A DNA stretch of 64,000 bases from an uncultured Pseudomonadales bacterium (GTDB lineage: Bacteria; Patescibacteriota; Microgenomatia; UBA1400; PJMF01). The translations under genes were made by a program, and so were the position numbers. A model generated the notes under the pieces. The model saw nothing but the letters and a program-made list of their open reading frames with translations. It was not told where the DNA came from and ran no database searches. This document shows positions 8,346 to 59,247 of the stretch, in pieces (the stretch's first letter is position 1; every line of letters starts with the position of its first letter). The stretch lies in assembly GCA_964555515.1 (NCBI GenBank), contig CAZKSJ010000002.1, forward strand, positions 537-64,536. The letters are read 5' to 3'.

Positions 8346-8459
8346 ATTACTATCTTAGCATTAATTCATTCTCAGCTGGCATAAGCTCTGTGTTTACACT
8401 CCACATAAACACGTTTCATCAATACATTCCTGGCCGCTTAAGCTATAATTTTGGGTGAA

Positions 8460-28277: not shown

Positions 28278-28278
28278 T

Positions 28279-28812
28279 ATGAAAGTTGATCCCAAATACC
28301 AAGCAATGCTGACAACCCAAGACTATGGTTCCTCTCCCTCCATCGATGGTGTCGAACTAATCAAGCTTAACCTACATACAGATGACGGGGGAAATTTTCT
28401 TGAAGTCTTTCGTCTCACCGACTCCCAAGTTAGCGGTTTATCCACCGCCTTTGAAGTTAGGCAAGTTAGTCTTTCTGTCATGTATCCTCAGGTTGTGAAA
28501 GCTTTTCATATACATCAGAAGCAAGATGATTTGTGGTTCGTGCCACCTTCTCACCGGTTATTAATCAACCTGCATGATGTGAGAGAGGGCAGTAGTACTT
28601 TTGATCAACACATGCGCGTAGTTTTGGGCGGAGGGCAAGCCAATTTGCTCCGAATTCCCACTGGCGTCGCGCATGGTGTTAAGAATTGTTATGATCAACC
28701 CATGTTTTTATTTTACGCCACCAATCAGCAATTCAATGCGCAAGCTCCCGATGAAAATCGGTTACCTTGGGATGTTTTTGGGTCTGATGTCTGGGAAGTT
28801 ACCAAAGGTTGA
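28279..28812 (+). CDS. rfbC: dTDP-4-dehydrorhamnose 3,5-epimerase-like cupin (RmlC).
   Basis: 177 aa. Cupin blocks KAFHIHQ, LLRIPTGVAHGV and the terminal RLPWD align with RmlC conserved regions. Sits between rmlB and rmlD. Confidence 0.65.
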   Translation: MKVDPKYQAMLTTQDYGSSPSIDGVELIKLNLHTDDGGNFLEVFRLTDSQVSGLSTAFEVRQVSLSVMYPQVVKAFHIHQKQDDLWFVPPSHRLLINLHDVREGSSTFDQHMRVVLGGGQANLLRIPTGVAHGVKNCYDQPMFLFYATNQQFNAQAPDENRLPWDVFGSDVWEVTKG

Positions 28813-28839
28813 TTATTAACTCTTTTTAAAAACAACAGA

Positions 28840-29733
28840 ATGAAATCAGAAATACTTGTCACTGGGTCTGGTGGATTAATCGGTTCTAAGTTTGTGCAAT
28901 CTTTGGCTGATCGGTATCATTTTCAGATGCTGGATATATCACATCCCACCAATCCGGTTGATATCACTAACTTTCAGCAACTTTTTAATTCAGTGCAGAA
29001 TTCTACTGCTCCTTTTTTAGTGCACTTTGCAGCTTACACCGATGTGACTGGAGCTTGGCAACAGACGGGTGATCAAACCGGCATTGCCTACCAAGTCAAC
29101 GTCGTTGGCACCCAAAATATTGTCAAGGTCTGTCAAGAAACAAACAAACACTTGATTCATATTTCTACTGCCTATGTGTTTGATGGTCAGAAAAAGGAAC
29201 AATACCTTGAAACTGATCGCGTTCATCCTATTGAGTGGTACGGAGAAACCAAAGCAAAGGCGGAAGAAGAAGTCATGAAAAGTGACAAGCCTTGGACAAT
29301 TCTTCGTATCGACCAACCATTCCGTCAAGATCCTTTCGTTAAACCAGACATTGCCCATGGCATTGCCCACCAGCTCCTGGATCACACCTTGCCTCCCCAG
29401 TTCATTGACCACTGGTTTGGCCCGACGGTAATTGAGGACTTAGTGAAAGTGATTGAGTGGGTTTTTCGCACTAATACGACCGGCTTGTATCACGCCACTA
29501 GCGGTGAGTCTTGGAACAATTTTGAATTTGCCACCAAAATTGCTGAACTGATGAATAGCTCAAATCAGGTTCAGTCTAGCAAACTGGCGGATTATCTAAA
29601 AACTTCTCAACGTCCATACCAACAAAATACCGCTCTCAATAATCAAAAGTTGGCCTCATTGCTAGATTTTAAACTTAACTCTGTCACATCAGCCTTAAAA
29701 TTAGTTAATTACTCATCGTCCGCAGCACTTTGA
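28840..29733 (+). CDS. rfbD: dTDP-4-dehydrorhamnose reductase (RmlD).
   Basis: ILVTGSGGLIGSKF Rossmann motif and catalytic YGETKAKAEE. About 297 aa, typical RmlD size, in the expected operon position. Confidence 0.65.
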   Translation: MKSEILVTGSGGLIGSKFVQSLADRYHFQMLDISHPTNPVDITNFQQLFNSVQNSTAPFLVHFAAYTDVTGAWQQTGDQTGIAYQVNVVGTQNIVKVCQETNKHLIHISTAYVFDGQKKEQYLETDRVHPIEWYGETKAKAEEEVMKSDKPWTILRIDQPFRQDPFVKPDIAHGIAHQLLDHTLPPQFIDHWFGPTVIEDLVKVIEWVFRTNTTGLYHATSGESWNNFEFATKIAELMNSSNQVQSSKLADYLKTSQRPYQQNTALNNQKLASLLDFKLNSVTSALKLVNYSSSAAL

Positions 29734-43558: not shown

Positions 43559-45163
43559 ATGACACTCAAACGTGTCCCTAACTCTACTTTACTGAAGAAA
43601 TTTCACATCACCGATAAAACTCAAAATCTTTGGAAATATTTGTGTTATGTGGCAATCTTTATTTTATTTACTGTGGGATCTTTACACCTCCAAAAAGCTG
43701 ATTTTTATTATGATACCGACATTGCTCGAGATATGCTTTTACTCGAAGAAATGGTTAAGGAAAATAAATTAACACTGATTGGCGGCAGAACCAGCGTATC
43801 TGGCGTATTTCATGGGCCCTTATATTATTGGCTGATGTTACCATTTTTTGTTTTATCTGGCGGCAATCCAGTAGCGATTAGTTGGGTGTGGTTTGTGATA
43901 TATCTGATGTTTATTGGATCATTCTATTACGTTGGGAAAAGAGTATTCGACGATCAGACCGCTTTGATGAGTACTACCTTGCTCACAAGCGCTACTATCG
44001 CTTATTCTAGCGGCTTCACTCACAGCGTATTGGCCAACTTTCTGATTGTTCCCTTAATCTATTTAGTATATCTCTATCTTCAGTCCAACAAAGTCTGGCT
44101 GCTATTGGGAGCTGTCTTGGTGGCAGGATTGATTATTCAGTTTCAAATGGCATTTGGTGTACCAATATTGATACTAATTGGAGGTTATACGATTTATCAT
44201 ATCGTTTATCACCAGAATTATATACATTTATTGGCAGGTTTATTACTATTTGTGCCAATCAGCACATTCATTGCATTTGATTTACGACACAACTTTATTC
44301 AGCTAAATTCGGTTTGGTCAATAATCACTGGTGAAAGTGCCGGAAATTCTAGTCTTAATGGATACTGGCCAGATCGTTGGGCTTCATTTATCGATACGTT
44401 CAGATTTTGGTCAATTCCTCTCAATGAGTTGCAAGATTTTGCTAAAGTCTCCACCATTATCTTGTTAGCGTTTCTCGCGTACCAAAACTTTTTAGCCGGC
44501 AATAAATCAAATAAATTTATCACCTTGTCAACATTGATTATCTTTGGTTTTTGGATTGTGACTAGTCCATTTAAAGGCAATGTATGGCCTCAATACTATC
44601 GCACCTTATTGCCCATAGTCATACTTTGTCTGACTTATGCTGTGGTTCATTATCTACCAAAGAAGTTATTCCTAACCATATTGCTGTTGATTATTGGTAC
44701 TAATACATTTTTTGCTCTCAAGTCTGGGATTGATTATCTAAAATCTACACCCACAACTGATGAAATACATTGGAAGTTCTATCGTCAAATGGTTGAGGAT
44801 GTTTTGGTTAATAGTGGTGGTGAACCATTTGGCTACTATGTTTTCACTCCTGACCAATTTGGTTATCAAGCCAAGTACGCACTGAGATTCTTTACCAAAG
44901 CTAATAATGCCATTGCTCAACCGTACACCAAACAATCGTTGACGTATTTGATACTTGCAGGCTATTGGGATGACAATAAGTTTTTAAGTAAAGAGTATTG
45001 GCAGAATAGCCAGGTAAGAATTGACCGTGACCCCGATGAACTTTGGAATTATAAAAATTTTGAAGAGCAAGAAACTTACACTGTAATGAGATTTAATTTA
45101 ACAGATTTAGAAACTGCTATTCCCTCTGAGCCAACTCTGCTTGAAGGAATTCATTTTCGATAA
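43559..45163 (+). CDS. GT-C membrane glycosyltransferase, ArnT-like family B.
   Basis: Motif YYDTDIARDMLLLEEMVKENKLTLIGGRTSVSGVFHGPLYYWLMLPF, shared with the ORFs at 8460 and 50801. Confidence 0.55.
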   Translation: MTLKRVPNSTLLKKFHITDKTQNLWKYLCYVAIFILFTVGSLHLQKADFYYDTDIARDMLLLEEMVKENKLTLIGGRTSVSGVFHGPLYYWLMLPFFVLSGGNPVAISWVWFVIYLMFIGSFYYVGKRVFDDQTALMSTTLLTSATIAYSSGFTHSVLANFLIVPLIYLVYLYLQSNKVWLLLGAVLVAGLIIQFQMAFGVPILILIGGYTIYHIVYHQNYIHLLAGLLLFVPISTFIAFDLRHNFIQLNSVWSIITGESAGNSSLNGYWPDRWASFIDTFRFWSIPLNELQDFAKVSTIILLAFLAYQNFLAGNKSNKFITLSTLIIFGFWIVTSPFKGNVWPQYYRTLLPIVILCLTYAVVHYLPKKLFLTILLLIIGTNTFFALKSGIDYLKSTPTTDEIHWKFYRQMVEDVLVNSGGEPFGYYVFTPDQFGYQAKYALRFFTKANNAIAQPYTKQSLTYLILAGYWDDNKFLSKEYWQNSQVRIDRDPDELWNYKNFEEQETYTVMRFNLTDLETAIPSEPTLLEGIHFR

Positions 45164-45288
45164 ATCATAGCTCACTCGCATGCACTAGGAGGGCACTTCA
45201 CTTCGTTGCGTACTCTCCGTCGCGAACCATAGCTTAATCTAACAGTCCACGATCATGTTGAATTTAGGCTAAAGCCTAATTCATCATG

Positions 45289-45359
45289 ATCCCGGACTAG
45301 GATTCGAACCTAGGATAACAAGTTCAGAGCCTGTTGTGATGCCACTTCACTATCCGGGA
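45289..45359 (-). tRNA. tRNA-Gln (anticodon CUG).
   Basis: Manual fold of the minus strand: acceptor TCCCGGA/TCCGGGA (U1:A72), U8, D-arm GTGA/TCAC, anticodon stem ACAGG/CTTGT with loop CTCTGAA, 4-nt variable loop, T-arm CTAGG-TTCGAAT-CCTAG. CCA is not encoded. Confidence 0.8.
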
Positions 45360-45464
45360 CTGTATTGCTGCTGTTATCTACAAGTCTGAACAGGTTAGTA
45401 TATCAAACAAAGACACTAAAACGCCAGCTTGTTTTAAATTTTATGAATCCTAAGATATCAATCC

Positions 45465-46139
45465 ATGTCACCCCATCTTTTAATCGTCGAAGACGACCGC
45501 AACTTGCAAGACTTGCTTATTAGTCATTTCACCCAAAAATATAGTGTCACCACCACCGACTCGGTTGATAGAGCCTGCGACTTAATTGACCGCACCCAAT
45601 TTGATTTAGCCATTGTTGATCGAGTCTTGAGTGATGGTGATGGCCTCGATGTCGTCACCTATCTTAAAGATGTGCAACCACAGTCAAGAGTGATTGCCTT
45701 GAGCAAGATGGGTCGTCCCGAGCAGCGCGTATCTGGCCTTGAATCTGGTGCAGACGACTATTTAGCCAAGCCATTTTGTTTGGCGGAACTAACCATCAAA
45801 GTCAGTAAATTGCTCGCCAACATCAAGAATAATAATCGCTCATCACAAATAAAAACTAAGTACTTAAAGTTAAACAATCACACTTCAGAATTAGGTTTGC
45901 GAGACTCGGTGGTGAGACTACGTCGTCGTGAGGCACAAATTTTGAGCGTGTTGTTGCTCTATCTTAATCAAGTGGTGAGTAGGCAGATGATCATCAACAG
46001 TGTTTGGCAAAATAAAGATTTTGTACCCAACAAAACTACCCTCGATGTCTATATCCGCCGCTTAAGAATGCACTTGGGAGGAAGCGCTGGTCAGATCGTG
46101 ACAATCAAAGGCGTGGGTTATTCATATCAAGAAATCTAG
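45465..46139 (+). CDS. Response regulator, OmpR family.
   Basis: Receiver domain LLIVEDD...LAIVDRVLSDGDG...ALSKMG and a C-terminal winged-helix (trans_reg_C-like VTIKGVGYSY). Confidence 0.8.
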   Translation: MSPHLLIVEDDRNLQDLLISHFTQKYSVTTTDSVDRACDLIDRTQFDLAIVDRVLSDGDGLDVVTYLKDVQPQSRVIALSKMGRPEQRVSGLESGADDYLAKPFCLAELTIKVSKLLANIKNNNRSSQIKTKYLKLNNHTSELGLRDSVVRLRRREAQILSVLLLYLNQVVSRQMIINSVWQNKDFVPNKTTLDVYIRRLRMHLGGSAGQIVTIKGVGYSYQEI

Positions 46140-46803
46140 TTCTTGGGCTCAATATTGGTAACTTCAGCACCACCATGGTGCCCAATCCAGGTTTAGATAA
46201 TATTTCAAATTTACCATAAAATACCGATTCAACTACCCACTTCACAAACGGCAAACCAATACCCATGCCATCTTTTTTAGTAGTCAAGAATGGTTGTTTC
46301 ACCAATAATTGCTGCCATGTATTCATCCCTTGCCCAAAATCAGAAAGCACAATCTTTAATACTTTTTGGGAAGAAAAAAGATTCAGCCCAACTAGGGTTT
46401 CTTCATTTGATTCCAGACTGTTTTTTACCAAACACATCACCGCTTCAATGAGCAACAGCTGTTTACCCTGCAGGCTCACTCCATCAATCTGGCGGTGTGC
46501 AAAGTAGACTCTGTCAGAATCGGGCAATAACAACAACTGCTGAGCAATCATGACCGTGGTTTCTTTAACCGAGAATGTGTAGTGGTGATGAGGTGAGCGC
46601 AGTGCTCTCAATACTCCTCTAATTTGCTGATAAGCAGCCGATTTTACCCGATCATCATTTGTAGCCGCCAGCACTGTCAACGGCGAAGCAATGGAGTGTT
46701 CAATCAGACTACCTAACACGACTTGTTTATCAATTGAGTTACCAAAATCATCGGGTTGAATAAAACAAATGATATCCAAAAACTGCTCCCAAAGCCGTTT
46801 CAT
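46105..46803 (-). CDS. Minimal cytoplasmic sensor histidine kinase (HisKA plus HATPase_c only).
   Basis: H-box-like EHSIASPLTVL, N-box LVKNSLESN, G1 DFGQGM, G2 GMGIGL. No TM or sensor domain. Its 3' end overlaps the response-regulator gene by 35 nt (convergent). Confidence 0.6.
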   Translation of the reverse strand: MKRLWEQFLDIICFIQPDDFGNSIDKQVVLGSLIEHSIASPLTVLAATNDDRVKSAAYQQIRGVLRALRSPHHHYTFSVKETTVMIAQQLLLLPDSDRVYFAHRQIDGVSLQGKQLLLIEAVMCLVKNSLESNEETLVGLNLFSSQKVLKIVLSDFGQGMNTWQQLLVKQPFLTTKKDGMGIGLPFVKWVVESVFYGKFEILSKPGLGTMVVLKLPILSPRTRFLDMNNPRL

Positions 46804-46917
46804 ATTCTTTTTCTCTATCTCTCAAGCATTGGGCAGGCAAATTAAACTACGTTAATCTTATCAAGATAAATTTGAAAATAAATGAGTAACGGTTATGTAA
46901 AAGTTATAATGTCTATT

Positions 46918-48588
46918 TTACTTATATTGATCGCCATTTCGCACAATTTCGGTTACATCCCAAACTTGTAAGCAAGGGGCATCAAAGGGTCGGCAGTACT
47001 CAGCCACTAAGTATTCTTTGGTTATATCAAAGGTAATGCGATGCGAATTGACTAATATCCAAAGCCGATCAAACTCACTTTGCCGATCAATTAATACTTG
47101 CGGAATACTGTTGACGGGCTGACCTGCTCCCTCCACATAGATATTTTCCACTGGCGTGCGATGGAGATACATCAGTACTCCATCTGGCAATGTGCCAAAA
47201 AAGCCTTCTGTCGCCACAGCAATTTTTTGCTCGGCTGCTTGAGTTTGCAGCAAGTTTACGAACTGATAAATACCGTGACCAGACGACCACTTAGTCAGAT
47301 ACTGCTCTTTATCGGCAGGCACGTATGGATATGAAGAGACATCTGTCCAGGCATAAGTCAGTGCCACCAGAGATGGAGTAATAATCTGTTGGATTAACAT
47401 AATTGAAGTAAATACCACCACAATTTGCTTGGCAACACTGATTTTCATCATCTGGTGGCGCACTCTCTCTAGATAGAAGGAAGCCGCCAAGGCAGCGGCC
47501 ACGGTCAGATAGAGCACTGAGGGCATTAGGTATCTTGGGTAGACGACTTTGCCAAGCACCACAATCGGAAACACAAAAGAAAGACTTGCAAGAATCAACA
47601 CCAACTGCTGTCGCCGCAAGTCCCTCTCAAATAACCCAGCAATAATTAATACAACCACACCCGGAGTTAAGTACCACCAATAATAACTAAAGTACGTAGG
47701 GGCATTAATCAAAGTTTGTTGCCATGCTCCATGTAAGAGCACATCTGAGACCGGATATAAAAAGTCACTACCCCGGAAGATGAGCTGGGGAAAGGCAGCT
47801 GAGATTTTTAAAGTGAGAAAAATCAATAAGCCGATCGCGACCAACACCCCAACCCTGATTAGTCTGGAAATTAATCGGGACGCCGATTCTAGAGGTGGCA
47901 ATAAGGTTAATGCAAACAATGACGGTACTGCCAATAAGGCGGGAATTTTGGTATACAAAGCTGCTCCTAAAAATATTCCTCCCCACCACATCCACGCTCC
48001 ATTAAGAGACCATAAACGTTTGATTTCTGCATAACTTATCCGCCAAAACATTCTCACAAACTGCTGATGGCTGGCAATCAGACCGGCTTGAGTATTAAGC
48101 TTGATGACCGCTAAGGAAGCACCAGCAATCCAAACAGTCAACCAGCCATCCATTAAGGCCATGCGATGGTGGATAAACCAAAAAGGCAAAAATGTCACGA
48201 ACAACGCCCCAATTGTTTGGGTAAACCGCTTGCCGCCCAATGCTTTGAGGATCAACGTCACAAAAACTAATTGAACTGCGCCTCCCAATACAGACACAAA
48301 TCTGCCGGCAAATAATGGATCATCAAATAAATACTGAAAAGGAAATAGCATCCAGATAAAAAGGGGGGTTTTGCCATCATTTAAGGGAAAGAATAAATAC
48401 CGTGGCAAATCATCAATCATGAGTTGCGACCATCTGATGTAAATCGCTTCATCTGCAAAAACAGGCAAAGCGGTTAGGTAAATCAGGTGAGTCAAAAAAT
48501 AGATGGTCAACCAGATACCAAACCACTTTATTTCTCGGTGAAGGAGATTTGCACGAAGTCGTTTCACACTAGCATTATACGACGTCAC
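46918..48588 (-). CDS. GT-C membrane glycosyltransferase, ArnT/PMT-like (family A).
   Basis: Loop motif LPVFADEAIYIRWSQLMIDD...LNDGKTPLFIWM. Polytopic. Confidence 0.7.
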   Translation of the reverse strand: MTSYNASVKRLRANLLHREIKWFGIWLTIYFLTHLIYLTALPVFADEAIYIRWSQLMIDDLPRYLFFPLNDGKTPLFIWMLFPFQYLFDDPLFAGRFVSVLGGAVQLVFVTLILKALGGKRFTQTIGALFVTFLPFWFIHHRMALMDGWLTVWIAGASLAVIKLNTQAGLIASHQQFVRMFWRISYAEIKRLWSLNGAWMWWGGIFLGAALYTKIPALLAVPSLFALTLLPPLESASRLISRLIRVGVLVAIGLLIFLTLKISAAFPQLIFRGSDFLYPVSDVLLHGAWQQTLINAPTYFSYYWWYLTPGVVVLIIAGLFERDLRRQQLVLILASLSFVFPIVVLGKVVYPRYLMPSVLYLTVAAALAASFYLERVRHQMMKISVAKQIVVVFTSIMLIQQIITPSLVALTYAWTDVSSYPYVPADKEQYLTKWSSGHGIYQFVNLLQTQAAEQKIAVATEGFFGTLPDGVLMYLHRTPVENIYVEGAGQPVNSIPQVLIDRQSEFDRLWILVNSHRITFDITKEYLVAEYCRPFDAPCLQVWDVTEIVRNGDQYK

Positions 48589-48693
48589 TCAGATGAAACC
48601 TAGCGACTCTTCAGCGATTAATTAAATAACAATGATCATCATCCTTAGAATCGACAAACCCGCAATCGACGACTAATAAACCTTCAATTAAAC

Positions 48694-50025
48694 TCAGCTT
48701 TCAATCACCTTTAGGCGTGGTAAAGCAGAACTGATTGACTTGCGCTCTTTTTTTCGCTTGACAAAGACGTATAACAAGCAAAGTCCTGCGGGTAACCAAG
48801 TAGTTAATTGTTGGTGCCATAACACGTTCCCCTCAAACCCACCAGCCAATATCCAAGGAGCATAGCGCCAGAGTGAACTGAGCGATAAGACCAACATCAA
48901 CTGTGACCAACGTTCAAACTTGATTAAAGGTAACCAAATTAACGGCCAAATCAAATACCAAGGATGGAATTGTTGAGAACGCGTTGTTAATAAAGGTAGG
49001 AACATCAAGACAGAAGCGATTAAGGGTAGTTTTGTGAGTAGCTTGTGGTCTAACCAATCAACCATGATTGTTTGGTATTTCTGGGGAATTATGGATAAGT
49101 GCCCGATCTGCGTTCGTTTAAAAATGTTTATTAGCACCAACTTTTCTAGCAAAATCAGGGTAACCAGGGGCAACAATATTAGGGTGGCGTATTTGATGCT
49201 CACCGACAATAATAGCAAGCCAACCCCCAACATCATTGGTCGGAAAAGCTGGCTATTGATCGTCTTAATATTAGTCAACACCACTAAGCCAGCCATGGCG
49301 GGCACCATCATCCACAGATCATTGTGGGAATTGCCGATCACCTCAATCACCACTAGGGGATTTAGAAAAAATAAGGCTAGTTGCCAAACTTTTAAGCTTT
49401 GACCAGTCCATGCCTTGGCAGCCAATAACACCACCCAGAGCGCGACGAGTAAACTAAGTAAACTGAAGAATCGAAAAGCGAACCAAGAAGTAATAAATTT
49501 TCCCCCGCCAAGCAGGTATGGCAACAATGATAATGCGGTCCAACCATACCCATATGGAGCTGGTGTATGGGTATTGTGCATGAACCTCGTCCAGTCGTCT
49601 GCCACAAAATTGAGGGCCACTACCTGGTGAGGATCTGCACCATACACCAAGACCATTTTGGCATTAAATATGTAATTAAAGACATCATGAGAGAGAGCGT
49701 TATAAGCAAATAATAACGGCAAAATTAGTAAAACATAAAAACCGATCATTTTTGGCTGAAAAGTGAGGTTTACCAGCTCCTTCCTCCTGAATATCACCGC
49801 CAAAGACAAAAAAATCACAAACCAAAGTGTGGTAATCAGCAAATATCCCTGGGTGAGCAGCACACTATTATGAAAGAAAGTCTGCCACATCCAAGTTTGA
49901 AACTGCCAGTAGATGGGATGGTTAATTAAAACCAAGTTTGGATCGACCAATCCATAAGTAAGCAGCGCATACAACAAACCGCACAAAAAGTATGCGGATA
50001 ACAACATTTTTAGTGAAAGTCTCAT
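48694..50025 (-). CDS. Polytopic membrane protein; may be a GT-C/GT87-like glycosyltransferase or a Wzy-like polymerase.
   Basis: At least 10 predicted TM helices; loop region SHDVFNYIFNAKMVLVYGADPH. No firm family assignment. Confidence 0.3.
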   Translation of the reverse strand: MRLSLKMLLSAYFLCGLLYALLTYGLVDPNLVLINHPIYWQFQTWMWQTFFHNSVLLTQGYLLITTLWFVIFLSLAVIFRRKELVNLTFQPKMIGFYVLLILPLLFAYNALSHDVFNYIFNAKMVLVYGADPHQVVALNFVADDWTRFMHNTHTPAPYGYGWTALSLLPYLLGGGKFITSWFAFRFFSLLSLLVALWVVLLAAKAWTGQSLKVWQLALFFLNPLVVIEVIGNSHNDLWMMVPAMAGLVVLTNIKTINSQLFRPMMLGVGLLLLSVSIKYATLILLPLVTLILLEKLVLINIFKRTQIGHLSIIPQKYQTIMVDWLDHKLLTKLPLIASVLMFLPLLTTRSQQFHPWYLIWPLIWLPLIKFERWSQLMLVLSLSSLWRYAPWILAGGFEGNVLWHQQLTTWLPAGLCLLYVFVKRKKERKSISSALPRLKVIES

Positions 50026-50027
50026 AA

Positions 50028-50804
50028 TTAATTCGAAGCCCGATAAGCGCCTTGAAAATCCGAAATCCGAATTTTTAAAATATCCCTTAACATGCGCAGC
50101 GAATCTTTGATGGGACTGACTCGATTTGTCTCAGTGTGTTTCCAGATGATTGGCACTTCTTTAATTTTAAACTTAAACTTTCTGGCGAGGTATAGTAACT
50201 CTACGTCAAAAGCACCGGTAAACGCATCTGTTCTAAGTTTTTGCTCACCATAAACACGCAACGAGTTAAACAATTTTTCAGTCGCAGCGGCTGAAAATAA
50301 CTTAAAACCACATTGGGTATCATCAATTCCTGGCACAGCCATCAACTGCACTAACAAATTAAACCCTCGACCCATAATATGGCGGTATAATGGCTCCTTA
50401 TCTCTTCTAGCACCCTTGATTTCCCGTGAGCCAATCACTACCTCATAATCCTGCTTAGCGTATGTAAACAAATTTTCAACTTCAGAAAGCGGGGTAGACT
50501 GATCAAAATCAGTAAACAAGCGCCATACACCCCTGGCTTCAAGCATGCCTGCCTTGACGGTGGGAGCTTTGCCGGCATGAATGTTTCTCAGTAAATACAC
50601 GTTGGGATACTGACCAGCATATTTTGATAACTCTTCCAGAGTTTTATCGGTTGAACCATCGTCGCTAAAAATCACCTCCCACTCATAGTCCTGCTTCTGC
50701 AAGTATCCAAGCAGTTGTTCAATGACGCCTCTTTCAAGGTTTTTTTGCTCATTATAAGAGGGAATCACCACTGATAGAAATGGCTGCTTCATGCTCTTCA
50801 TCAT
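50028..50804 (-). CDS. GT2 polyprenol-phosphate sugar synthase (GtrB/DPM1-like).
   Basis: LSVVIPSYNEQKNLERGV...VIFSDDGSTDKT. A short soluble GT2 of 258 aa. Overlaps the upstream GT-C gene by 4 nt. Confidence 0.65.
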   Translation of the reverse strand: MMKSMKQPFLSVVIPSYNEQKNLERGVIEQLLGYLQKQDYEWEVIFSDDGSTDKTLEELSKYAGQYPNVYLLRNIHAGKAPTVKAGMLEARGVWRLFTDFDQSTPLSEVENLFTYAKQDYEVVIGSREIKGARRDKEPLYRHIMGRGFNLLVQLMAVPGIDDTQCGFKLFSAAATEKLFNSLRVYGEQKLRTDAFTGAFDVELLYLARKFKFKIKEVPIIWKHTETNRVSPIKDSLRMLRDILKIRISDFQGAYRASN

Positions 50805-52342
50805 ACCTCACCTTCTGCTGATTGACCACGTTTTTCTAAAATCATTACTTCGGTGCCGTTGGAGAGCTGAAATTTTGTCAATGACTGACTTGGACCGAAC
50901 GTGACAATCTCATAGATTGGCAGAGCTAACGGGTCTTCTGCTACTCGTTCTTCATCAATGATAACTAGTTTTTTCGCCCTAGCATGTTCTTCCGGTGAAA
51001 GAGGTGATTTATCAGGAATTGTATGTAAATAATATCGATAATTCATGCCATACAAGTCTTTAGAAGATGATAATAAAATTAAGGTGTAATTCTCGCCAGC
51101 ATCTATGCGAGCATGAATGGCAGCCGCTGCTTCCGATAATTGATTGATCGTTGGTCCAGACGGTTGAAAGCTATATTGGCCAACGTTATATCTTAAATAA
51201 AACACCAGAAAACCGACAAAGATGATCAAATTTAGTTTGTGAAGCTTGATTAGCTGATCAAATACATAACCAAATAGCAAAAACGTCGCTGGAAATAAAT
51301 AGGCGATGTAGTGATCGAAGACTGAGTGTTGATAAAAACTCAAACCCAATACACCCACCAATAACCAGACAATCACGACTATCACACCTGCTTGTGGCTG
51401 GTGTTTTTTGTGATCGCGATAAACAAATAAGCCAGTCAATAATATCGTGATGAGCAACAAAAGGGAGTTAAGCTGCCGCTGCTTGCCAATCGTGAACTCA
51501 AATAAAACGTGCATCGCCCGCCCGTGAGTCTCTCTAATCACCGTCTCCAAACCGCCCAATCTTTGCTCTGCTTGAGTAAAATTTTGGTCACTCGTGAGCA
51601 ATGATCCCAACGCCTTGAAATTAGTCCAATCATGCTTAAAATCAAACAATAGTAAAGGCACAAACGAGATCACTAAAATGGCCAGCGCACCGATGGTAGG
51701 CATGACTAATGGCTGCAGCTTTTTTGATCGAAACCTTTGCCCAAAACTAATCAACCAAATTACCACTGCCGCCGCTCCAGCCAAAATCGTCACATAATGC
51801 AGTTGCAACAATATTGCAAATAATAACCCAACCAACAACCAATATTTTGGATTTTTTTGCCAGGCTAAATATGTGGCATACATCATTGCTAGAGAAACAA
51901 AAGGTGCCAAATTAGGATTCCAACTAAATCTACTTAAGGAAATTGCCACCACCGAGAAAGTCATCAATAACCCGGCGATGAGTCCAGCTCTTTCACCCAC
52001 CAGCTTTCTGCCCCATAAGTACAATCCAAGTACCGTTGCCACCCCAAATATAGCCATAGCAAAAGCTGGACCCAACGGACTGGGATAGGAAAGCCACAAA
52101 AAAGGCAACATAAAATAATAGTAAAATGGCCCCAAATACATGTTGCCAACACTAGTGACGGGACCAATAAAAACTAGGTCACCTTCTTGAAATATCTTCG
52201 CAACAATTAAAGCATCTCTGCCCTGATCGCCCAAAAAATGTAAAGAACCAGGTAAATTCCACACCCGCAGACCAAGCGCAATCGCTGCCAAGATGACTAA
52301 GATCAATCTCTCTCTAGTAATTTTGATGGGCAAGTTTCTCAT
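50801..52342 (-). CDS. GT-C membrane glycosyltransferase, ArnT-like family B.
   Basis: Motif HFLGDQGRDALIVAKIFQEGDLVFIGPVTSVGNMYLGPFYYYFMLPF. Confidence 0.55.
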   Translation of the reverse strand: MRNLPIKITRERLILVILAAIALGLRVWNLPGSLHFLGDQGRDALIVAKIFQEGDLVFIGPVTSVGNMYLGPFYYYFMLPFLWLSYPSPLGPAFAMAIFGVATVLGLYLWGRKLVGERAGLIAGLLMTFSVVAISLSRFSWNPNLAPFVSLAMMYATYLAWQKNPKYWLLVGLLFAILLQLHYVTILAGAAAVVIWLISFGQRFRSKKLQPLVMPTIGALAILVISFVPLLLFDFKHDWTNFKALGSLLTSDQNFTQAEQRLGGLETVIRETHGRAMHVLFEFTIGKQRQLNSLLLLITILLTGLFVYRDHKKHQPQAGVIVVIVWLLVGVLGLSFYQHSVFDHYIAYLFPATFLLFGYVFDQLIKLHKLNLIIFVGFLVFYLRYNVGQYSFQPSGPTINQLSEAAAAIHARIDAGENYTLILLSSSKDLYGMNYRYYLHTIPDKSPLSPEEHARAKKLVIIDEERVAEDPLALPIYEIVTFGPSQSLTKFQLSNGTEVMILEKRGQSAEGEV

Positions 52343-52354
52343 AGCAAATGGCGT

Positions 52355-53554
52355 TCAATGCTGCTTGCCGCGTTCCTTCCAGATGAATTTGTTGTAGGCA
52401 AAAAAGTTCCAGAAGAGCCCTAAGACTATTCCGATCATGACGTATAAAGTACCGCTATCAAAAGTAAAAGCCAAAGGCCAACTGAAGTTGAAAATCGCAA
52501 ATATGCCAAAAATTCTTTCTCCGAAAAAAGCGACTAATAATTGAATGAGAATTGAACCTGCCGAGGTCACATTAAACTGCAGGAACTTAGCTGGTAACTG
52601 CGCAAGCGGTAATTTTCTGTCAGCAAAAGTCCACATGTTGTTGAGCGCAAAGTTGCTCCCAATCGCCACTTCAATGCTTAAAAATGTCGCGACTAAGTAA
52701 TTGGTGACGGCAAAGAAACTGAAGACTGGCAAAATATATCTAAACAACTGCAAACTAAGTAACTGCACCACTGTCCCAGTGCCCCCAACAACTAAAAATT
52801 TAAAGACTCGATGATTCAAGATTTCTTGAATTCTCACTCTAAAAATAAACAGTAGGGTGTTTTTGATATATTCAGGCCCCAATTTTGACTCTCCCTCTGT
52901 CCGGTCAACAAACTGAAAAGGTACTTCTCTAATATCAAAGCCTGCCTTCACGGCTGAATAGAGAAACCCAATCTGGAAAGTGTAACCAAAAAACTGAGCA
53001 GAATCCAACTTATCATGAACCGTTTGATATACTTTTTTAGAAATTGCCCGATAGCCGGTAGTCCAGTCCCGAATTGAGAAGTTTGTTAAAACCGCCATAA
53101 TGATCCAATTGCCCACCACACTTAAGAGCTTGCGATGAAAACCCCAGTTTTTGGGGATGCCTCCGCCAGGAATATAGCGAGAGCCGAGCACCATGTCGGC
53201 ACCGTTGTCGATCTCTGCTAAGAAGTCAGGAATTTTTGTGGGGTCATGTGAGAGGTCGGCATCAAACTCAAAAATCACATCTGCTTGTAGATGATTAAAA
53301 GCTTCTGCCATGCCTTTTAGGTATGCCCCACCCAAGCCAGATTTTTTTTGATTGACTAAAAGATGAACATTTTTATAACGCTTAGCTAACTCCTCAACTA
53401 GCTGATATGTTTTATCTGGCGAAGTGTCATCCACCACCAAGATACCCATTTGCCAATGATCAATTTTGGCAAATACTTCCAACAATCTTTTGATGACTCT
53501 TTCAATGTTGGCTCGTTCATTGTAGGTGGGAATAACGACAATCGCTCGTTTCAT
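52355..53554 (-). CDS. Polyprenol-phosphate mannose/hexose synthase (DPM1/GtrB-like GT2) fused to a C-terminal GtrA-like 4-TM domain.
   Basis: [12 protein letters not shown]...[10 protein letters not shown] and the DPM-synthase DxD block [10 protein letters not shown]. The C-terminal 120 aa ([16 protein letters not shown]...NNMW...YNKFIW) resemble GtrA flippases. Confidence 0.7.
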
Positions 53555-54528
53555 GCTTGCCCTTTTTGCTCTGCTGCCAGTTCAGCTTCTACCATTATTT
53601 TCACCAATTCTTCAAAGTTTGTCTTAGGTTCCCAACCCAGTTTTTGCTTAGCTTTACTAGGATCGCCAATCAGCAGATCAACTTCTGCCGGACGATCATA
53701 TTTAGGATTGTGCTGATATACCTCTTCCCAATTGGCGATACCAGCCACCTGACAAGCTTTTTCCAAAAAATCCCGCACTGAGTGAGTCTGGCCAGTCGCA
53801 ACAACGAAGTCTTCCGCCTTCTCCTGCTGCATCATTAACCACATGGCTTCCACATAATCTTTGGCATAACCCCAGTCGCGCTTTGATTCAAGGTTACCCA
53901 GCTCAACGTGTTGCTGCTTGCCAAGCTTAACTCTAGCCACACCATTAGCAATTTTTCTGGTGACAAATTCTAAGCCGCGACGGGGCGATTCGTGATTGAA
54001 CAAAATCCCAGAAACAGCGAACAAGTCATAAGATTCGCGGTAGTTGACGGTGATCCAGTGACCGTATACTTTGGCAACTCCATAGGGAGATCTGGGGTAA
54101 AAAGAAGTATTTTCGTTCTGGGGCACTTCGCGCACTTTGCCAAACATTTCACTGGAACTAGCTTGATAAAATCGAGTATGCGGTGACGCCAAACGGACTG
54201 CTTCCAACATTCTCACCACGCCGAGTGCCGTAAACTCACCTGTGAGGACGGGTTGTTCCCAACTTGTCTGCACAAATGACTGGGCGGCTAAGTTGTAGAA
54301 CTCGTCTGGTTGAATGTCTTTTAAGGCGAAAGTAACTGAGTGTTGATCAATTAAATCACCAGAAACTAGTTCAAGGTTGGGGTGATGAATAAGGTGTTCA
54401 ATTCTAGCAAAGTTTTGGGTACTCGTGCGCCGAGTTAATCCATAAACTTGGTAGCCTTTGTCGAGTAATAATTCTGCCAAATAAGAACCATCTTGACCGG
54501 TAATACCAGTGATAAAAGCTTTTTTCAT
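53551..54528 (-). CDS. gmd: GDP-mannose 4,6-dehydratase.
   Basis: Collinear with E. coli Gmd: [71 protein letters not shown]. The ATG at 54528 overlaps the rmd stop as ATGA. Confidence 0.9.
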
Positions 54529-55481
54529 TTTTCTCTCCAATACATTATTACCTGAGCCAATGTTTCTGACAAACTGAATTTTGGTTGCCAGCCGAGCTGC
54601 TTAATTTTCCGATTGTTGGCAATCACCACAGGGATATCTATAGGTCTGTCTTTACTCGGGTCATGCTCAACCTTAATTTCGTGATCTGCAAGCTTAATCA
54701 GTTGATCAAGCACGGTTTGTACAGACACTCCTTCGCCGCTACCAATGTTATAAGACTCACCAACCACACCTTTTTCCATCAACAACATATAAGCTTTGAC
54801 CACATCTCTCACATCAGAAAAATCCCTGACGGCACTCAAATTGCCCACTTTAATGCTGCTTTGCTCTCCTCGCTCTACTTTCACAATCTGCTCAGCAAAA
54901 GCTGGAATCGCAAAGGCGGTTGTTTGTCTAGGACCCAAGTGATTAAAAGGTCTGGCATGAATAATTTGTAGATCATAAGAACGCACGTAGGCAGCTGCGA
55001 GCATTTCCTGCGCTACTTTAGAAACTGCATATGGATTAACCGGCCGAAAAGGATGAGATTCATCAATCGGAATCTCTTCTTCTGTTAAACTTTCTCCATA
55101 GGCGTCTGCCGAACCAATACTCAACGTTCTGGCCTGGGGACAATGTACTTTGATGGCTTGAAGAACATTTAGCTGCAAATTTAAGTTGTTCTGCATCACT
55201 TGTGCAGCTTTCTCAAAACTATCACCGGCACTGGCAAAGGCGGCCAAGTTATAGACCTCCGTAGGTGAGAGCGCCTTCATCAGCTCTGAAGTCGCCGCAT
55301 AATCGGTTAAATCAACCTGATGAAAGCGCTCTTCAGGTAGCATGCCCTGCATGTAATTGGGCAGATCACCAAAATTGGTGGTATGAATCTCTAGCTCTGG
55401 GTCGGCTTTCAACTCTTCAATCAAGTGAGAACCCGCGAAACCGGTGCCGCCAGTGACCAGAACAACTCGTTTATTGTTCAT
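54525..55481 (-). CDS. rmd: GDP-4-keto-6-deoxy-D-mannose reductase-like SDR (Rmd; GDP-D-rhamnose synthase).
   Basis: Aligns with Pseudomonas Rmd: [58 protein letters not shown]. Sits immediately downstream of gmd. Confidence 0.65.
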
Positions 55482-56781
55482 GAACGTTGCCTCTCCCAAT
55501 ACCAATATATTTAAATCCCCACGCTTCTACCTGGTTTGCCAAAAATTGATTACGCGCATCAATAAACCATTGGTTTTTCTTGGCATCAACCACCGCACTG
55601 TAATCATAGTCCACTATTTCTGGCCACTCAATTAAAGCTAGCACCACATCTGCATGCTGACAGGCCTCGTCAATCGCCTGATGGAAACTCAAATCGGGAT
55701 GATTTGGCAGGATCGACTTAGCAGCTACCAAAGCCTTAGGATCATAACCACACACTTTCGCCTGTTGGTCTAACAAAAAGGGGATGACTTTCAAGCTTGG
55801 CGCCTCTCTTAAATCGTCGGTGTGAGGTTTGAAGGATAGTCCCAACACTGCCACCGTCTTACCAGCCCAACCCTCGATCTGTTCACCAAAATTAGCCATC
55901 AACTTGGGGATACGATGCTCATTGAGATCAGAGATTTTGTTGAATAGATTTTCCCCTTCACCAACCTGTCTAGAGTAATAAGCCAACTCCTTCACATCTT
56001 TGGGGAAACACGAACCACCATAGCCCACTCCCGGATACCAGTAGTGTTTACCAATACGCCGGTCATGACTAATGGCAGCAATGACTTCTTCGACATCTGC
56101 CCCATTTTTCTCACAAAGATCGGCAATTTGATTGATAAACGTAATTCTAGTCGCCAGATAAGCGTTGGCAGCATACTTGGCCATTTGGGCAGACTCTGGC
56201 GACACTTCAATCACCTGACATTTTAGCGGTCGGTGTAGTTCTCGCAAACGATCAAAAACTACGTTCTCTCTGGCTCCCACCACTACTCGATCAGGGTGGA
56301 TGGTATCTTCCACAGCCGAACCTTCTTTTAAGAATTCAGGCATGGCTGCCAAGTGGTACTTCACCTGAGCTGATTGGCTAATAATTTTATCTAATTTTGG
56401 TAATGTACCTGGTGGAACAGTAGATTTGACCGCGACAATGGCATCAGGTTTCAAAAATGGGGCTAATTCCTTGGCTGCACTCAATAAGTAAGTTAGGTCA
56501 GCTCCACCTTCTTGATTGGAGGGCGTACCCACTGCCAAGATGACTAACTCGCTTTGCTCAATGGCAGTTTTGTAATCGGTGGTAAAAGTTAAGTTTCCCA
56601 ACTTTTGTTGTTGTTTCAATAACTTTTCTAATCCTGGTTCGTAAAAAGGCACTTGGTTGTTTTTTAACTTCGCAATTTTGCGCTCGTCAATGTCTAAGCC
56701 AATCACTTTGTTGTCAAAAGAAGCAAAGACTGCGGCGGTTACTACCCCCACAAATCCCGTCCCAATTACCGTCATCTGCAT
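55471..56781 (-). CDS. ugd: Nucleotide-sugar 6-dehydrogenase (UDP-glucose 6-dehydrogenase-like).
   Basis: N-terminal VIGTGFVG Rossmann motif and the active-site block GGSCFPKD. Confidence 0.8.
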   Translation of the reverse strand: MQMTVIGTGFVGVVTAAVFASFDNKVIGLDIDERKIAKLKNNQVPFYEPGLEKLLKQQQKLGNLTFTTDYKTAIEQSELVILAVGTPSNQEGGADLTYLLSAAKELAPFLKPDAIVAVKSTVPPGTLPKLDKIISQSAQVKYHLAAMPEFLKEGSAVEDTIHPDRVVVGARENVVFDRLRELHRPLKCQVIEVSPESAQMAKYAANAYLATRITFINQIADLCEKNGADVEEVIAAISHDRRIGKHYWYPGVGYGGSCFPKDVKELAYYSRQVGEGENLFNKISDLNEHRIPKLMANFGEQIEGWAGKTVAVLGLSFKPHTDDLREAPSLKVIPFLLDQQAKVCGYDPKALVAAKSILPNHPDLSFHQAIDEACQHADVVLALIEWPEIVDYDYSAVVDAKKNQWFIDARNQFLANQVEAWGFKYIGIGRGNVHEQ

Positions 56782-56813
56782 GAGAAACCTTTCAACTTTT
56801 AAGACTAGAACAG

Positions 56814-57767
56814 CTAGTATACCACCGCCCCAGCCTGCAACTCTTCTATCAAATCCACTGGGTCATACCACTGGTAAGCATTCAACACCCAGTCCATTAA
56901 TTGTCTTGTATCAGCATACCGATCTTCGCTAGCTAAAACAACTATGATGAAACGCCTGCCCTGGTCATTGACCGCTGTGATCAAGACTTGACCTGCTTCT
57001 TCCGTCGTGCCGGTTTTAATACCAATTATCCGACTGTCGTCTTTAAGTAATTGATTGGTGTTGTATAAAATATGTTGCTGCTTGCCAGTCACATCACTGA
57101 TTACCGCCGACTGAGAGGCAACTAACTCACTCAAAAATTGATCTTTTAATACTTCCCTAGACAAAATTGCTAAATCACGCGCAGTTGTTTGATGAAACTG
57201 ATTGTCAAACCCACTAGGATTGTTGAAAAATGTGTCATTCATCTGTAACCTTTGGGCGGTTTCATTCATCTGCTGTACAAATGCCTCCTCACCTCCTGGA
57301 AAGTTTTCTGCGATGACGGTAGCCGCATCGTTGCCAGATTGAATGATGGCTGCACGTAATAAGTCGTCAATCGTTAGCCGCTCACCACCAGTCAATCCCA
57401 CAGTTGTGCCTTGATATTCCGTGTTGCTGGGCACTTGCAAAATCTGTCCGGGGTTAAATGCTTGCCTCGCCACTAAGGCGGTCATTAACTTGGTGGTAGA
57501 AGCCGGCGCAAACAGCGTACTGGCATTCTTTTCAAATAGCTTCGCGCCTGAACGTTCGTCTGTGATATAAACTGCTTGGGCCGAAGTGACTGGATCCGGC
57601 ACTGAAGATGATCTAATCGCTACTGGCGCCACTTCCACTTGTGAAATTGTCACTTCAGATTCAACCAACTCATCTAAGCCTTTAGTTGGCTCAATTGATC
57701 GGTACAAAACTAGCAACAACAAAATCACTCCAATTGTAAACAACTGGCGCTTCTTTAAGTTTGGCAC
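56814..57767 (-). CDS. D-alanyl-D-alanine carboxypeptidase (PBP5-type; S11 peptidase).
   Basis: All three penicillin-binding motifs are present: SxxK (ASTTK), SxN (SGN) and KTG (KTGTT). N-terminal TM/signal segment. Confidence 0.8.
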   Translation of the reverse strand: MPNLKKRQLFTIGVILLLLVLYRSIEPTKGLDELVESEVTISQVEVAPVAIRSSSVPDPVTSAQAVYITDERSGAKLFEKNASTLFAPASTTKLMTALVARQAFNPGQILQVPSNTEYQGTTVGLTGGERLTIDDLLRAAIIQSGNDAATVIAENFPGGEEAFVQQMNETAQRLQMNDTFFNNPSGFDNQFHQTTARDLAILSREVLKDQFLSELVASQSAVISDVTGKQQHILYNTNQLLKDDSRIIGIKTGTTEEAGQVLITAVNDQGRRFIIVVLASEDRYADTRQLMDWVLNAYQWYDPVDLIEELQAGAVVY

Positions 57768-57816: not shown

Positions 57817-59247
57817 TTACTTTTCTATATGTTTAAGGTGTAACTCTGTCAACTGATCTGCTGATAACAAAGCTGGCGCATCCATCACCGCCGTTTTACC
57901 ACTAGAGGACATGGGGAAAGCAATCGCTTCTTTAAGCGAGGTTTCTCCCGCCAACAACATCACGATTCTGTCCACTCCCAAGGCAATACCGCCGTGAGGT
58001 GGCGTCCCCAACTCAAATGCCCTCAACATGTGACCCACGCTCGCTTCAATTTCTTCATCTGAATAACCCATGATGCGATAGGTAGCTTTGAGAAGCTCGG
58101 GTTGATGAGCTCTAATGCTGCCGCCACCTACTTCATATCCGTTGCAGATCAAATCGTACTGGCTGGTCAATATTTGCTCAATATTTTCTCCTTTGAGATG
58201 TTGTTCCACGTGCTCTGATAGAGGCATGCTAAAAGGGTTATGAGTAAATGTCCAACCTGATTTGCCATCGGCTACCTCCGCTCGATCTGCCTTATCTACC
58301 TTTTTGAAAAAAGGAAACTTAATCACCCAAGCAAAAGCAAGCAACCCGCTGTCTTTTTCAGATTCACTTCTCAAATCAAACTTATCCTGACCAAACTGCT
58401 CCATCGCTTGTTGATAGGTGAAAATGGGAAATGGTGTCTCCTTAATTTTTCCGCCAACAGCCTGGATAGATTCGATCATCATCTCTTCAACCGTGTTCAT
58501 CACTTGTTTTTGATCCACAAAACTCATCTCTAAATCAATTTGGGTATGCTCAAAACCACGGTCTGCCCGCAAATCTTCGTCCCGGACACATTTGGCCAAC
58601 TGAAAGTATCTTTCCACGCCAGCGGTCATTAATAACTGCTTATACTGCTGCGGGCTTTGAGGGAGGGCATAGAATTTTCCAGGCTGTAATCTGGCGGGCA
58701 CGACAAAGTCACGTGAGCCTTCTTTGGTCGACTTCGTCAAGATGGGTGTCTCCACCTCCACAAAATCTCTCTTATGGAGCGCCTCCCGAACTGCTCTTGA
58801 ATAATCCGATCGGAGGACTAACGTTTGGTGCATCCTAGCTCGCCTGAGATCAAGATAGCGGTACTGCAGTCGCACCTCTTCACTAATCTCATGGCCATCG
58901 GTATCCACCGGTATCGGCAGTTCACGCGCTGTATTTAGCACTTTGTACTCAACCACATCCACTTCAATGGTGCCTGTTGGTAAATCTGGATTGACCATTC
59001 GTTCCGGCCTTTTTTTGACTTCACCAATAATCTCCACCACCGATTCTGTGGTTAACTCACCCATCTTTTGATATCCCACCACCTGCACTTTACCTGTCCG
59101 GTCTCTTAAGTCAACAAAAGTGAGCTTACCATGATCACGCTTGGTATCCACCCAGCCAGCTAACTTCACCACTTGACCCACCATCTCTAAGGTGTCATCC
59201 ACCATGGTTCTCACTAATTCTTTTTTTTCTGACACATTTTCAGACAT
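57817..59247 (-). CDS. aspS: Aspartyl-tRNA synthetase, compact form lacking the GAD insertion.
   Basis: Class II motif 2 RDEDLRADRGFEHTQIDLEMSF matches the bacterial AspRS consensus. N-terminal OB fold. 476 aa instead of about 590. Confidence 0.85.
   Translation of the reverse strand: MSENVSEKKELVRTMVDDTLEMVGQVVKLAGWVDTKRDHGKLTFVDLRDRTGKVQVVGYQKMGELTTESVVEIIGEVKKRPERMVNPDLPTGTIEVDVVEYKVLNTARELPIPVDTDGHEISEEVRLQYRYLDLRRARMHQTLVLRSDYSRAVREALHKRDFVEVETPILTKSTKEGSRDFVVPARLQPGKFYALPQSPQQYKQLLMTAGVERYFQLAKCVRDEDLRADRGFEHTQIDLEMSFVDQKQVMNTVEEMMIESIQAVGGKIKETPFPIFTYQQAMEQFGQDKFDLRSESEKDSGLLAFAWVIKFPFFKKVDKADRAEVADGKSGWTFTHNPFSMPLSEHVEQHLKGENIEQILTSQYDLICNGYEVGGGSIRAHQPELLKATYRIMGYSDEEIEASVGHMLRAFELGTPPHGGIALGVDRIVMLLAGETSLKEAIAFPMSSSGKTAVMDAPALLSADQLTELHLKHIEK

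Follow-up and report, generated by a model that had tools for sequence, protein, structure and literature searches.

A clade-wide Patescibacteria operon linking a predicted GDP-6-deoxy-D-hexose pathway to lipid-phosphate-sugar synthases and GT-C glycosyltransferases

What is the use, to an ultra-small bacterium, of genes for two nucleotide sugars, two lipid-phosphate-sugar synthases and several polytopic glycosyltransferases that are packed side by side? This question is raised by the region 43559-57767 of a 64,000-nucleotide stretch of contig CAZKSJ010000002.1, which is referred to here, at its full length, as the window. In the initial annotation this region was described as the second of two glycan islands, which together would build one glycan having both rhamnose enantiomers and a uronic acid. 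The analysis presented here points in another direction: the region is probably a vertically inherited operon of a Microgenomates-type patescibacterium (a relative of Pacebacteria and Woesebacteria), which serves glycosylation outside the membrane by way of polyprenyl-phosphate sugars. Its core is a cassette of seven genes in the order ugd-rmd-gmd-DPMS-PMT_2-GT2-MptA_B, where DPMS stands for a protein like dolichyl-phosphate mannose synthase (DPMS).

The gene set has been derived from the list of open reading frames (ORFs) together with Pfam and NCBIfam scans, and the gene boundaries have been refined with the gene calls on a near-identical public contig and with the junction sequences. Every gene named in the initial annotation is present, at the coordinates given there or a few codons off. 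From ugd to MptA_B, neighbouring genes either overlap (by ATGA or by 11 nucleotides) or are spaced by at most 12 nucleotides, as seen from the junction sequences. Scans of the region for promoters and terminators give nothing above chance, and a tRNA is the only match of the Rfam scan.

The order of the cassette genes is conserved well beyond the window. In the synteny survey an alignment of the DPMS-like protein was scanned against one genome per species, which gives 80 loci, and the ORFs of these loci were classified by hidden Markov models made from the cassette proteins. Nearly all 80 loci are titled Patescibacteria, Pacebacteria/Paceibacterota, Woesebacteria or Microgenomates, and the closest one in the alignment scan is UBA1388 (85% identity). 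The seven-gene order is complete in 63 of the 80 species-level loci; 14 more are cut by contig ends and agree in order as far as they extend, leaving three true exceptions (L040, L058 and L063). Contigs with Rmd homologues at 52-75% identity all have the order from ugd to MptA_B, the peptidase, the PMT gene and the two-component pair being the variable members. The junction between gmd and the DPMS-like gene measures at most 50 nucleotides in all 68 genomes where it can be measured, with a 4-nucleotide overlap in 25, and in the broken cassette of L063 the DPMS-like gene remains with ugd-rmd-gmd, not with the GT-C genes. The G+C content of the region (0.41-0.45) shows no shift with respect to the flanks. 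The term island does not fit a region whose composition matches its flanks and whose order is kept in this way, and horizontal acquisition is rejected on the same grounds, the lack of a G+C shift and the clade-wide synteny. In many genomes rmlD-trmD, as the end of an rmlBCD-trmD block, lies directly upstream of ugd, and therefore the two islands of the window are contiguous elsewhere; where the rml/Wzx region stands with respect to the cassette differs from genome to genome.

Among the exceptions, L058 has a DPMS-like gene (7986-9215; 57% identity) that is nested in the Patescibacteria clade and lies on a 1.2-Mb contig of 65% G+C, adjoining the gene of a 984-residue DUF2079 membrane protein and with no gmd or rmd nearby; horizontal transfer may have occurred here. 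Many public records of metagenome-assembled genomes that bear the cassette (L012-L090) are titled 'uncultured Pseudomonadales', 'Vitreimonas', 'Methylococcaceae' or 'Limisphaerales', and are apparently mislabelled Patescibacteria.

The nucleotide-sugar genes are considered first. The dehydratase Gmd (GDP-mannose 4,6-dehydratase; 53551-54528, minus strand, 325 residues) passes the cut-off of the curated equivalog model TIGR01472 (438.7 bits, cut-off 415) and matches the solved Gmd structures 2z1m and 1rpn (the latter of Pseudomonas aeruginosa) at 413-415 bits, as compared with only 110 bits for a GDP-heptose dehydratase. Its residues S125, E127, Y149 and K153 are invariant in 77 of 77 orthologues, and the gmd call is sound. 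The adjacent gene (54525-55481, minus strand, 318 residues) encodes an extended short-chain dehydrogenase/reductase (SDR), in which the GxxGxxG motif (G11-G14-G17), Ser124, Tyr151 and Lys155 are kept in at least 75 of the 77 orthologues. When compared with solved SDRs, this reductase matches best the Rmd (GDP-4-keto-6-deoxy-D-mannose reductase) of Aneurinibacillus thermoaerophilus (PDB entry 2pk3, 215 bits) and that of P. aeruginosa (6x3b, 143 bits), followed by a heptose dehydratase (122 bits), GalE (106 bits), Gmd (about 94 bits) and Fcl (69 bits). The identities are 38.6% and 33.3% to the two Rmds, respectively, and 23.9% to Escherichia coli Fcl. In a neighbour-joining tree, with both Rmds and with E. 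coli Gmd, Fcl, RfbB and RfbD (from the K-12 record) as references, and with no characterised GDP-6-deoxy-D-talose synthase or DmhB-type reductase among them, the reductase groups with its orthologues and the two Rmds in one clade, which is sister to Gmd and apart from Fcl. By bit score as well as by tree, the comparison of Rmd with Fcl proposed in the initial annotation thus comes out on the side of Rmd. The readings of the pair as Fcl or as GDP-heptose enzymes are rejected by the bit-score gaps in the PDB searches with the reductase and the dehydratase.

Since the reductase clusters with Rmd and its neighbour is above the Gmd cut-off, a GDP-6-deoxy-D-hexose pathway is supported, and judged by homology its most likely product is GDP-D-rhamnose, as the initial annotation had it; the homology of both enzymes agrees with this product, although sequence cannot separate D-rhamnose from 6-deoxy-D-talose. 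In the NCBIfam scan the reductase is above no cut-off and no Rmd-specific model is among its matches; the JGI pipelines label its homologues Rmd. Among the soluble enzymes of the cassette it is also the one least conserved, with a median identity to the window protein of 49% across L011-L090, when compared with 80% for Gmd, 60% for Ugd and 61% for the DPMS-like protein. Only two Rmds have been characterised so far, and in one survey the D-rhamnose pathway was found mostly in Pseudomonas (bioRxiv 10.1101/854612). Automated annotation already lists gmd and rmd in Patescibacteria and their phages (PMC12911398); a search of a phage collection with the Rmd-like protein gives only matches below 30% identity, to generic epimerases. 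On two of the public contigs (L005 11127-11900 and L006 10954-11931) an identical Rmd is encoded; the gmd of L005 is called as a 257-residue fragment after a gap of 170 nucleotides and that of L006 is intact (325 residues), and a frameshift or an assembly error is possible.

The second nucleotide sugar is that of Ugd (UDP-glucose 6-dehydrogenase; 55471-56781, minus strand, 436 residues), which has three UDPG_MGDP_dh domains and scores above TIGR03026 (413.6 bits, cut-off 189.8), though below the TuaD equivalog cut-off (409.7 < 700). Its match to UDP-glucose dehydrogenase in the PDB is 317 bits versus 204 bits for the GDP-mannose dehydrogenase AlgD, and its catalytic Cys258 is kept in 68 of 68 orthologues. 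The ugd call is therefore retained, the enzyme being nearer to UDP-glucose than to GDP-mannose dehydrogenases, and the reading as a GDP-mannuronate enzyme is rejected by the same pair of scores. The genes rmlB, rmlC and rmlD are also in the window (27213-29733), without rmlA. In phmmer searches with E. coli queries, which covered the window and 92 loci (1.41 Mb of cassette flanks, about 85 genomes), no ManB, ManC, RmlA or GalF is found, although a search of this extent does not prove their absence from the genome. The genes for the sugar nucleotidyltransferases must lie elsewhere, or the route of supply must be unusual. The 4-5 kb of contig to the left of the window have further glycosyltransferase genes and no nucleotidyltransferase. 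About 3 kb to the left of the window start (L091 4270-5267) there is a gene pair of a GT2 enzyme and a DUF2304 protein, which we take to resemble the streptococcal GacI/GacJ undecaprenyl-phosphate-GlcNAc synthase pair.

How are these sugars used? The gene that follows gmd (52355-53554, minus strand, 399 residues) encodes a DPM1/type-III-DPMS-like fusion of a GT2 domain (100.4 bits) and a GtrA/DPMS transmembrane (TM) domain (GtrA_DPMS_TM, 49.4 bits). The best solved match is the DPMS of Pyrococcus furiosus (PfDPMS, PDB entry 5mlz; 139.8 bits), which covers residues 4-343 and includes the TM domain, with ArnC and GtrB far behind in the same PDB search. The elements of the type-III DPMS architecture are all present: the GT2 domain with its DAD motif, the acceptor-phosphate residues and the fused GtrA-like TM domain. 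The 'DADLSH' and 'GYxFQ' pattern of the protein resembles that of eukaryotic DPM1. When the donor- and acceptor-binding residues of PfDPMS (PMC5526996) are mapped onto the alignment, D39, G68, L69, D89, D91, H94, R117, R131 and S135 are all kept, and the guanine, DAD and mannose O2/O3 positions as well as Arg117, Arg131 and Ser135 are invariant across the 80 DPMS-like orthologues. Three residues are substituted with respect to PfDPMS (Gln93 by Ser, Lys178 by Thr and Phe177 by Tyr). Arg117 of PfDPMS contacts the O6 atom of mannose and also binds the acceptor phosphate (PMC5526996), and in the comparison of the two pockets no residue separates mannose from 6-deoxy-mannose specificity. The enzyme is expected to use a GDP-sugar donor.

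The second synthase (50028-50804, minus strand, 258 residues; GT2, 83.3 bits) has no TM segment. Its best matches in the PDB are DPMS (64 bits), ArnC (43 bits) and GtrB (37 bits), all of them polyprenyl-phosphate glycosyltransferases, and JGI and NCBI give its orthologues the name 'dolichyl-phosphate beta-glucosyltransferase'; because of these matches and names it is called ALG5-like here, and it is probably a polyprenyl-phosphate hexosyltransferase with a UDP-sugar donor. The motifs DDGS, DFD and TQCGFK are kept in 72 of 72 orthologues. The 'Gtr-like module' of the initial annotation consists of a DPMS-like GT2-GtrA fusion and an ALG5-like GT2, with no separate GtrA, and follows the logic of Gtr. 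Membership of the Gtr three-component systems of O-antigen glucosylation is rejected, as the GtrA-like domain is fused to GT2 and the GT-C enzymes belong to the PMT_2, PMT and MptA_B families.

Three GT-C enzymes are encoded in the operon, all on the minus strand. The PMT_2-family protein (50801-52342, 513 residues; PF13231, 45.4 bits) has a GDQGRD loop after the first TM helix, in which D39 is kept in 69 and D43 in 70 of 70 orthologues; in a profile search this protein has no sequence match in the PDB. The next polytopic protein (48694-50007/50025; 437 residues), which was listed as a polytopic unknown, is indeed polytopic and can now be identified as a GT-C of the MptA_B family; its predicted structure (pLDDT, the predicted local distance difference test, 89.7) is nearest to ALG3, GPI-MT-I and PimE, which depend on dolichyl-phosphate-mannose or polyprenyl-phosphate-mannose (PPM). 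The PMT-family protein (46918-48588, 556 residues; PF02366, 28.4 bits, cut-off 22.7), whose gene is present in 57 of the 80 loci, has an invariant Asp46-Glu47 'DE' motif after its first TM helix in 52 of 52 orthologues. All three proteins have invariant acidic motifs in their first external loop, as befits GT-C members. The catalytic role of these acidic motifs has been described, with the DE motif serving as catalytic signature in protein O-mannosyltransferases (PMC12331936).

A fourth GT-C gene (43559-45163, plus strand, 534 residues; PMT_2 family, PF13231, 32 bits, cut-off 26.1) is outside the conserved core. The protein has about eight hydrophobic segments and is a paralogue of 50801 and 8451 (proteins are named here by their first coordinate). 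The three GT-C genes of the initial annotation (43559, 46918 and 50801) are thus all present, but as paralogues only 43559 and 50801 can be detected (phmmer E 1e-15), 46918 being of a different GT-C family. The window as a whole holds 13 polytopic GT-C-like proteins (in 1984-25805 and 43559-52342), which fall into the paralogue groups 50801/43559/8451, 6720/12532/14306/16017 and 3197/10049/23994, plus singletons.

The mechanism proposed below starts from what is shown, namely the gene identities, the intact catalytic motifs, the packing of the operon and the clade-wide synteny. How the sugars flow, how they are flipped, what accepts them and which sugar the DPMS-like enzyme loads (mannose or D-rhamnose) are inferred. 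In this mechanism Ugd would provide UDP-glucuronate, and from GDP-mannose a GDP-6-deoxy-D-hexose, which is most likely GDP-D-rhamnose, would be formed by Gmd followed by the Rmd-like reductase. At the cytoplasmic face of the membrane, the two polyprenyl-phosphate glycosyltransferases would then charge polyprenyl phosphate with single sugars, the DPM1/type-III-DPMS-like enzyme being expected to act on a GDP-sugar and the ALG5-like enzyme on a UDP-sugar. For the DPMS-like enzyme, passage of the product across the membrane is probably aided by the fused GtrA-like TM domain, in agreement with the flippase-like role that has been proposed for the TM domain of PfDPMS (PMC12992685). Outside the membrane, the sugars would be transferred by the three co-operonic GT-C enzymes (PMT_2, MptA_B/ALG3/PimE-like and PMT with the DE motif), and the nearby PMT_2 paralogue may contribute as a fourth. 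The sugars are likely to be received by a wall polysaccharide, for which another part of the window has rml, Wzx and LCP genes, and/or by surface proteins.

Several points weigh against this mechanism. The assignments are all predictions by homology, at 30-40% identity to characterised enzymes. The PMT_2 protein is without a solved homologue detectable by sequence and has a modest Pfam score. Three to four GT-C enzymes are to be served by two lipid-sugar synthases, and therefore any pairing of donor and enzyme is guesswork. As neither a GDP-mannose nor a dTDP-glucose nucleotidyltransferase is found in the window or the flanks, the substrate supply has to be presumed. Finally, the conserved gene order could in part be due to common descent within one clade and not to a coupling of functions.

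It is quite conceivable, with a chance that falls a little short of even, that the sugars follow two separate routes. The DPM1- and ALG5-like enzymes would then make ordinary polyprenyl-phosphate-mannose and -glucose for the GT-C enzymes, and GDP-D-rhamnose and UDP-glucuronate would go to the cytoplasmic GT2 and GT4 enzymes of the other glycan region, for a Wzx-flipped, LCP-attached wall polymer that contains L-rhamnose. This agrees with the intact DPM1 and ALG5 signatures, and with polyprenyl-phosphate-mannose being the donor of those GT-C relatives whose donor is known; in addition, genes for GT4 and GT2 enzymes, a Wzx-like flippase and an LCP ligase are found in the window along with rmlBCD, and it is rmlBCD-trmD that directly precedes ugd in many genomes. 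Such a division leaves the strict, translationally coupled linkage of gmd with the DPMS-like gene unexplained, and the two enzymes would compete for GDP-mannose; it also speaks against this division that the rml/Wzx region changes its place with respect to the cassette.

The single glycan of the initial annotation, a surface or S-layer glycan with L-rhamnose, D-rhamnose and uronic acid that is built by an accessory glycan island together with the first one, is doubtful. The genes it relies on (rmlBCD, gmd-rmd and ugd) are indeed all in the window and are adjacent in many relatives. Yet the region has no compositional deviation, the cassette is a conserved core feature and not a variable one, lipid-phosphate-sugar and GT-C transferases add single sugars outside the membrane and do not assemble a repeat unit, and no S-layer gene is identified. 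The gene content rather points to decoration by a lipid-phosphate-sugar/GT-C system, possibly of several acceptors.

It is unlikely that both nucleotide sugars are consumed within the cassette itself, the DPM1-like enzyme using GDP-D-rhamnose to make polyprenyl-phosphate-D-rhamnose, the ALG5-like enzyme using UDP-glucuronate to make polyprenyl-phosphate-glucuronate, and the GT-C enzymes installing both sugars outside the membrane. The cassette has exactly two transferases that depend on nucleotide sugars, and what its supply genes provide is exactly one GDP-sugar and one UDP-sugar; it is without a classical cytoplasmic GT4 enzyme or an ABC exporter, and the DPMS-like gene keeps to gmd, by abutting or overlapping it in every measurable genome and by staying with ugd-rmd-gmd in L063. 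Mannose-type GT-C enzymes would also fit the donor, because D-rhamnose is 6-deoxy-mannose. The pocket of the DPMS-like enzyme, by contrast, keeps the sugar-contacting residues of PfDPMS, including Arg117 at the O6 of mannose, and has no mark of 6-deoxy specificity, and its homologue in L058 does without gmd and rmd in its vicinity. That rmlBCD lies just upstream of ugd in many genomes suggests a block for sugar supply in general. Other enzymes of the window, of the GT4 and GT2 types, could act as consumers of GDP-D-rhamnose, and literature searches gave no precedent for polyprenyl-linked D-rhamnose or for the use of GDP-6-deoxy-mannose by a DPMS. If it were true, a whole clade of Patescibacteria would decorate its surface with D-rhamnose and glucuronate from undescribed lipid-linked donors, by means of mannosyltransferase-type GT-C enzymes. 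That the reductase is not a strict Rmd, and makes the C4 epimer GDP-6-deoxy-D-talose or acts on another GDP-ketosugar, is improbable: the 33-39% identity to the two Rmds characterised at all (bioRxiv 10.1101/854612), the lack of a curated Rmd model among its matches and the low conservation within the cassette (median 49%) would allow it, but among solved SDRs the two Rmds are by far the nearest to the reductase, and its partner dehydratase is a Gmd, not a heptose dehydratase.

The operon for glycosylation outside the membrane has neighbours that accompany it less strictly. Next to ugd is the gene of a membrane-anchored S11 DD-peptidase (56814-57767, minus strand, 317 residues; Peptidase_S11, 168.3 bits), which is a neighbour and not a core member of the cassette, as it is found in 31 of the 80 loci. 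The motifs STTK (SxxK), SGN (SxN) and KTG are kept in 28 of 28 orthologues. The protein had been called a PBP5-type carboxypeptidase, of which the S11 catalytic domain with all three motifs is confirmed; beyond this domain the 317-residue chain matches no Pfam family, and the C-terminal beta-sandwich of PBP5 is not seen. At the other end, the minus-strand genes are separated from the plus-strand GT-C gene 43559 by three genes that the initial annotation does not mention: a tRNA-Gln with anticodon CTG (45288-45359, minus strand; ARAGORN, and Rfam RF00005 at 61.5 bits), an OmpR-type response regulator (45465-46139, plus strand; Response_reg 70.9 bits, Trans_reg_C 62.1 bits) and a short soluble histidine kinase of 232 residues (46105-46803, minus strand; HATPase_c 33.4 bits, with the H-box-like sequence 'EHSIASPLT'). 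The regulator and the kinase are convergent and overlap by 35 nucleotides. Histidine kinase homologues flank the cassette in four relatives (L005, L007, L008 and L009), with the regulator adjoining the kinase in L005 and L007, and because the pair is kept beside the cassette in relatives it may regulate it. Beyond the peptidase gene (from 57817-59247 to 63581) are housekeeping genes for a class II aminoacyl-tRNA synthetase, recJ and a CCA-adding enzyme, with secDF just past the window end; these surroundings recur in several relatives.

Patescibacteria are mostly uncultured and host-dependent, and their cell surface, the site of host and phage attachment, is poorly understood. One operon that is kept in order across some 80 species-level genomes is a concrete handle on the chemistry of their envelope, and the D-rhamnose pathway would extend well beyond Pseudomonas-like organisms. 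If a lipid-linked 6-deoxyhexose exists here, it would be a new class of glycosyl donor; if not, the operon is an ordinary but unusually compact mix of known modules.

The known systems resemble the operon in different parts. The D-rhamnose pathways of P. aeruginosa (A-band, or common polysaccharide antigen) and A. thermoaerophilus (S-layer glycan) share with it the adjacent gmd and a reductase that best matches both solved Rmds, and the window Gmd is of a similar short type as that of P. aeruginosa (1rpn). In those two systems D-rhamnose is used by cytoplasmic GT4 enzymes, and an ABC transporter exports the product. The differences are the 33-39% identity of the Rmd, the product, which is predicted here, and the operon context of lipid-phosphate-sugar synthases and GT-C enzymes. 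The type-III DPMS of P. furiosus (5mlz) likewise has a GT2 domain, an interface region and a GtrA-like domain of four TM helices in one chain, with the DAD motif in common as well as the residues for donor and acceptor. The window enzyme differs by the three substitutions listed above and by being bacterial, as strictly defined type-III DPMS has been reported only from archaea (PMC12992685, 2026). The mycobacterial PPM system (Ppm1, PMT, MptA/MptB and PimE) also combines a PPM-synthase-like enzyme with a PMT having the DE motif and with MptA_B/PimE-like GT-C enzymes, whereas here everything is in one operon that includes gmd-rmd and ugd, the synthase is fused to a GtrA-like domain and there is no lipomannan context. 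The Gtr, CsbB-GtcA-YfhO, GacI-GacL and Arn (ugd-ArnC-ArnT) systems follow the same logic, in which a GT2 enzyme transfers the sugar from the nucleotide to polyprenyl phosphate, the product is flipped and a GT-C enzyme transfers the sugar outside; further shared traits are the linkage of ugd to an enzyme of the PMT_2/ArnT family and a locus for an L-rhamnose polymer in the neighbourhood. They differ from the operon, in which the flippase domain is fused and a single unit has two synthases and three to four GT-C enzymes, and homologues of ArnA, ArnB and ArnD are not seen in the cassette. Each module taken singly belongs recognisably to a known family; no earlier description appears to exist of the seven-gene cassette shared by a whole clade, of a 6-deoxyhexose pathway that is coupled to a DPMS/GT-C system, or of a bacterial type-III-DPMS-like architecture. 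The unusual trait of the operon is that ugd, rmd and gmd are joined to lipid-phosphate-sugar machinery across a whole clade.

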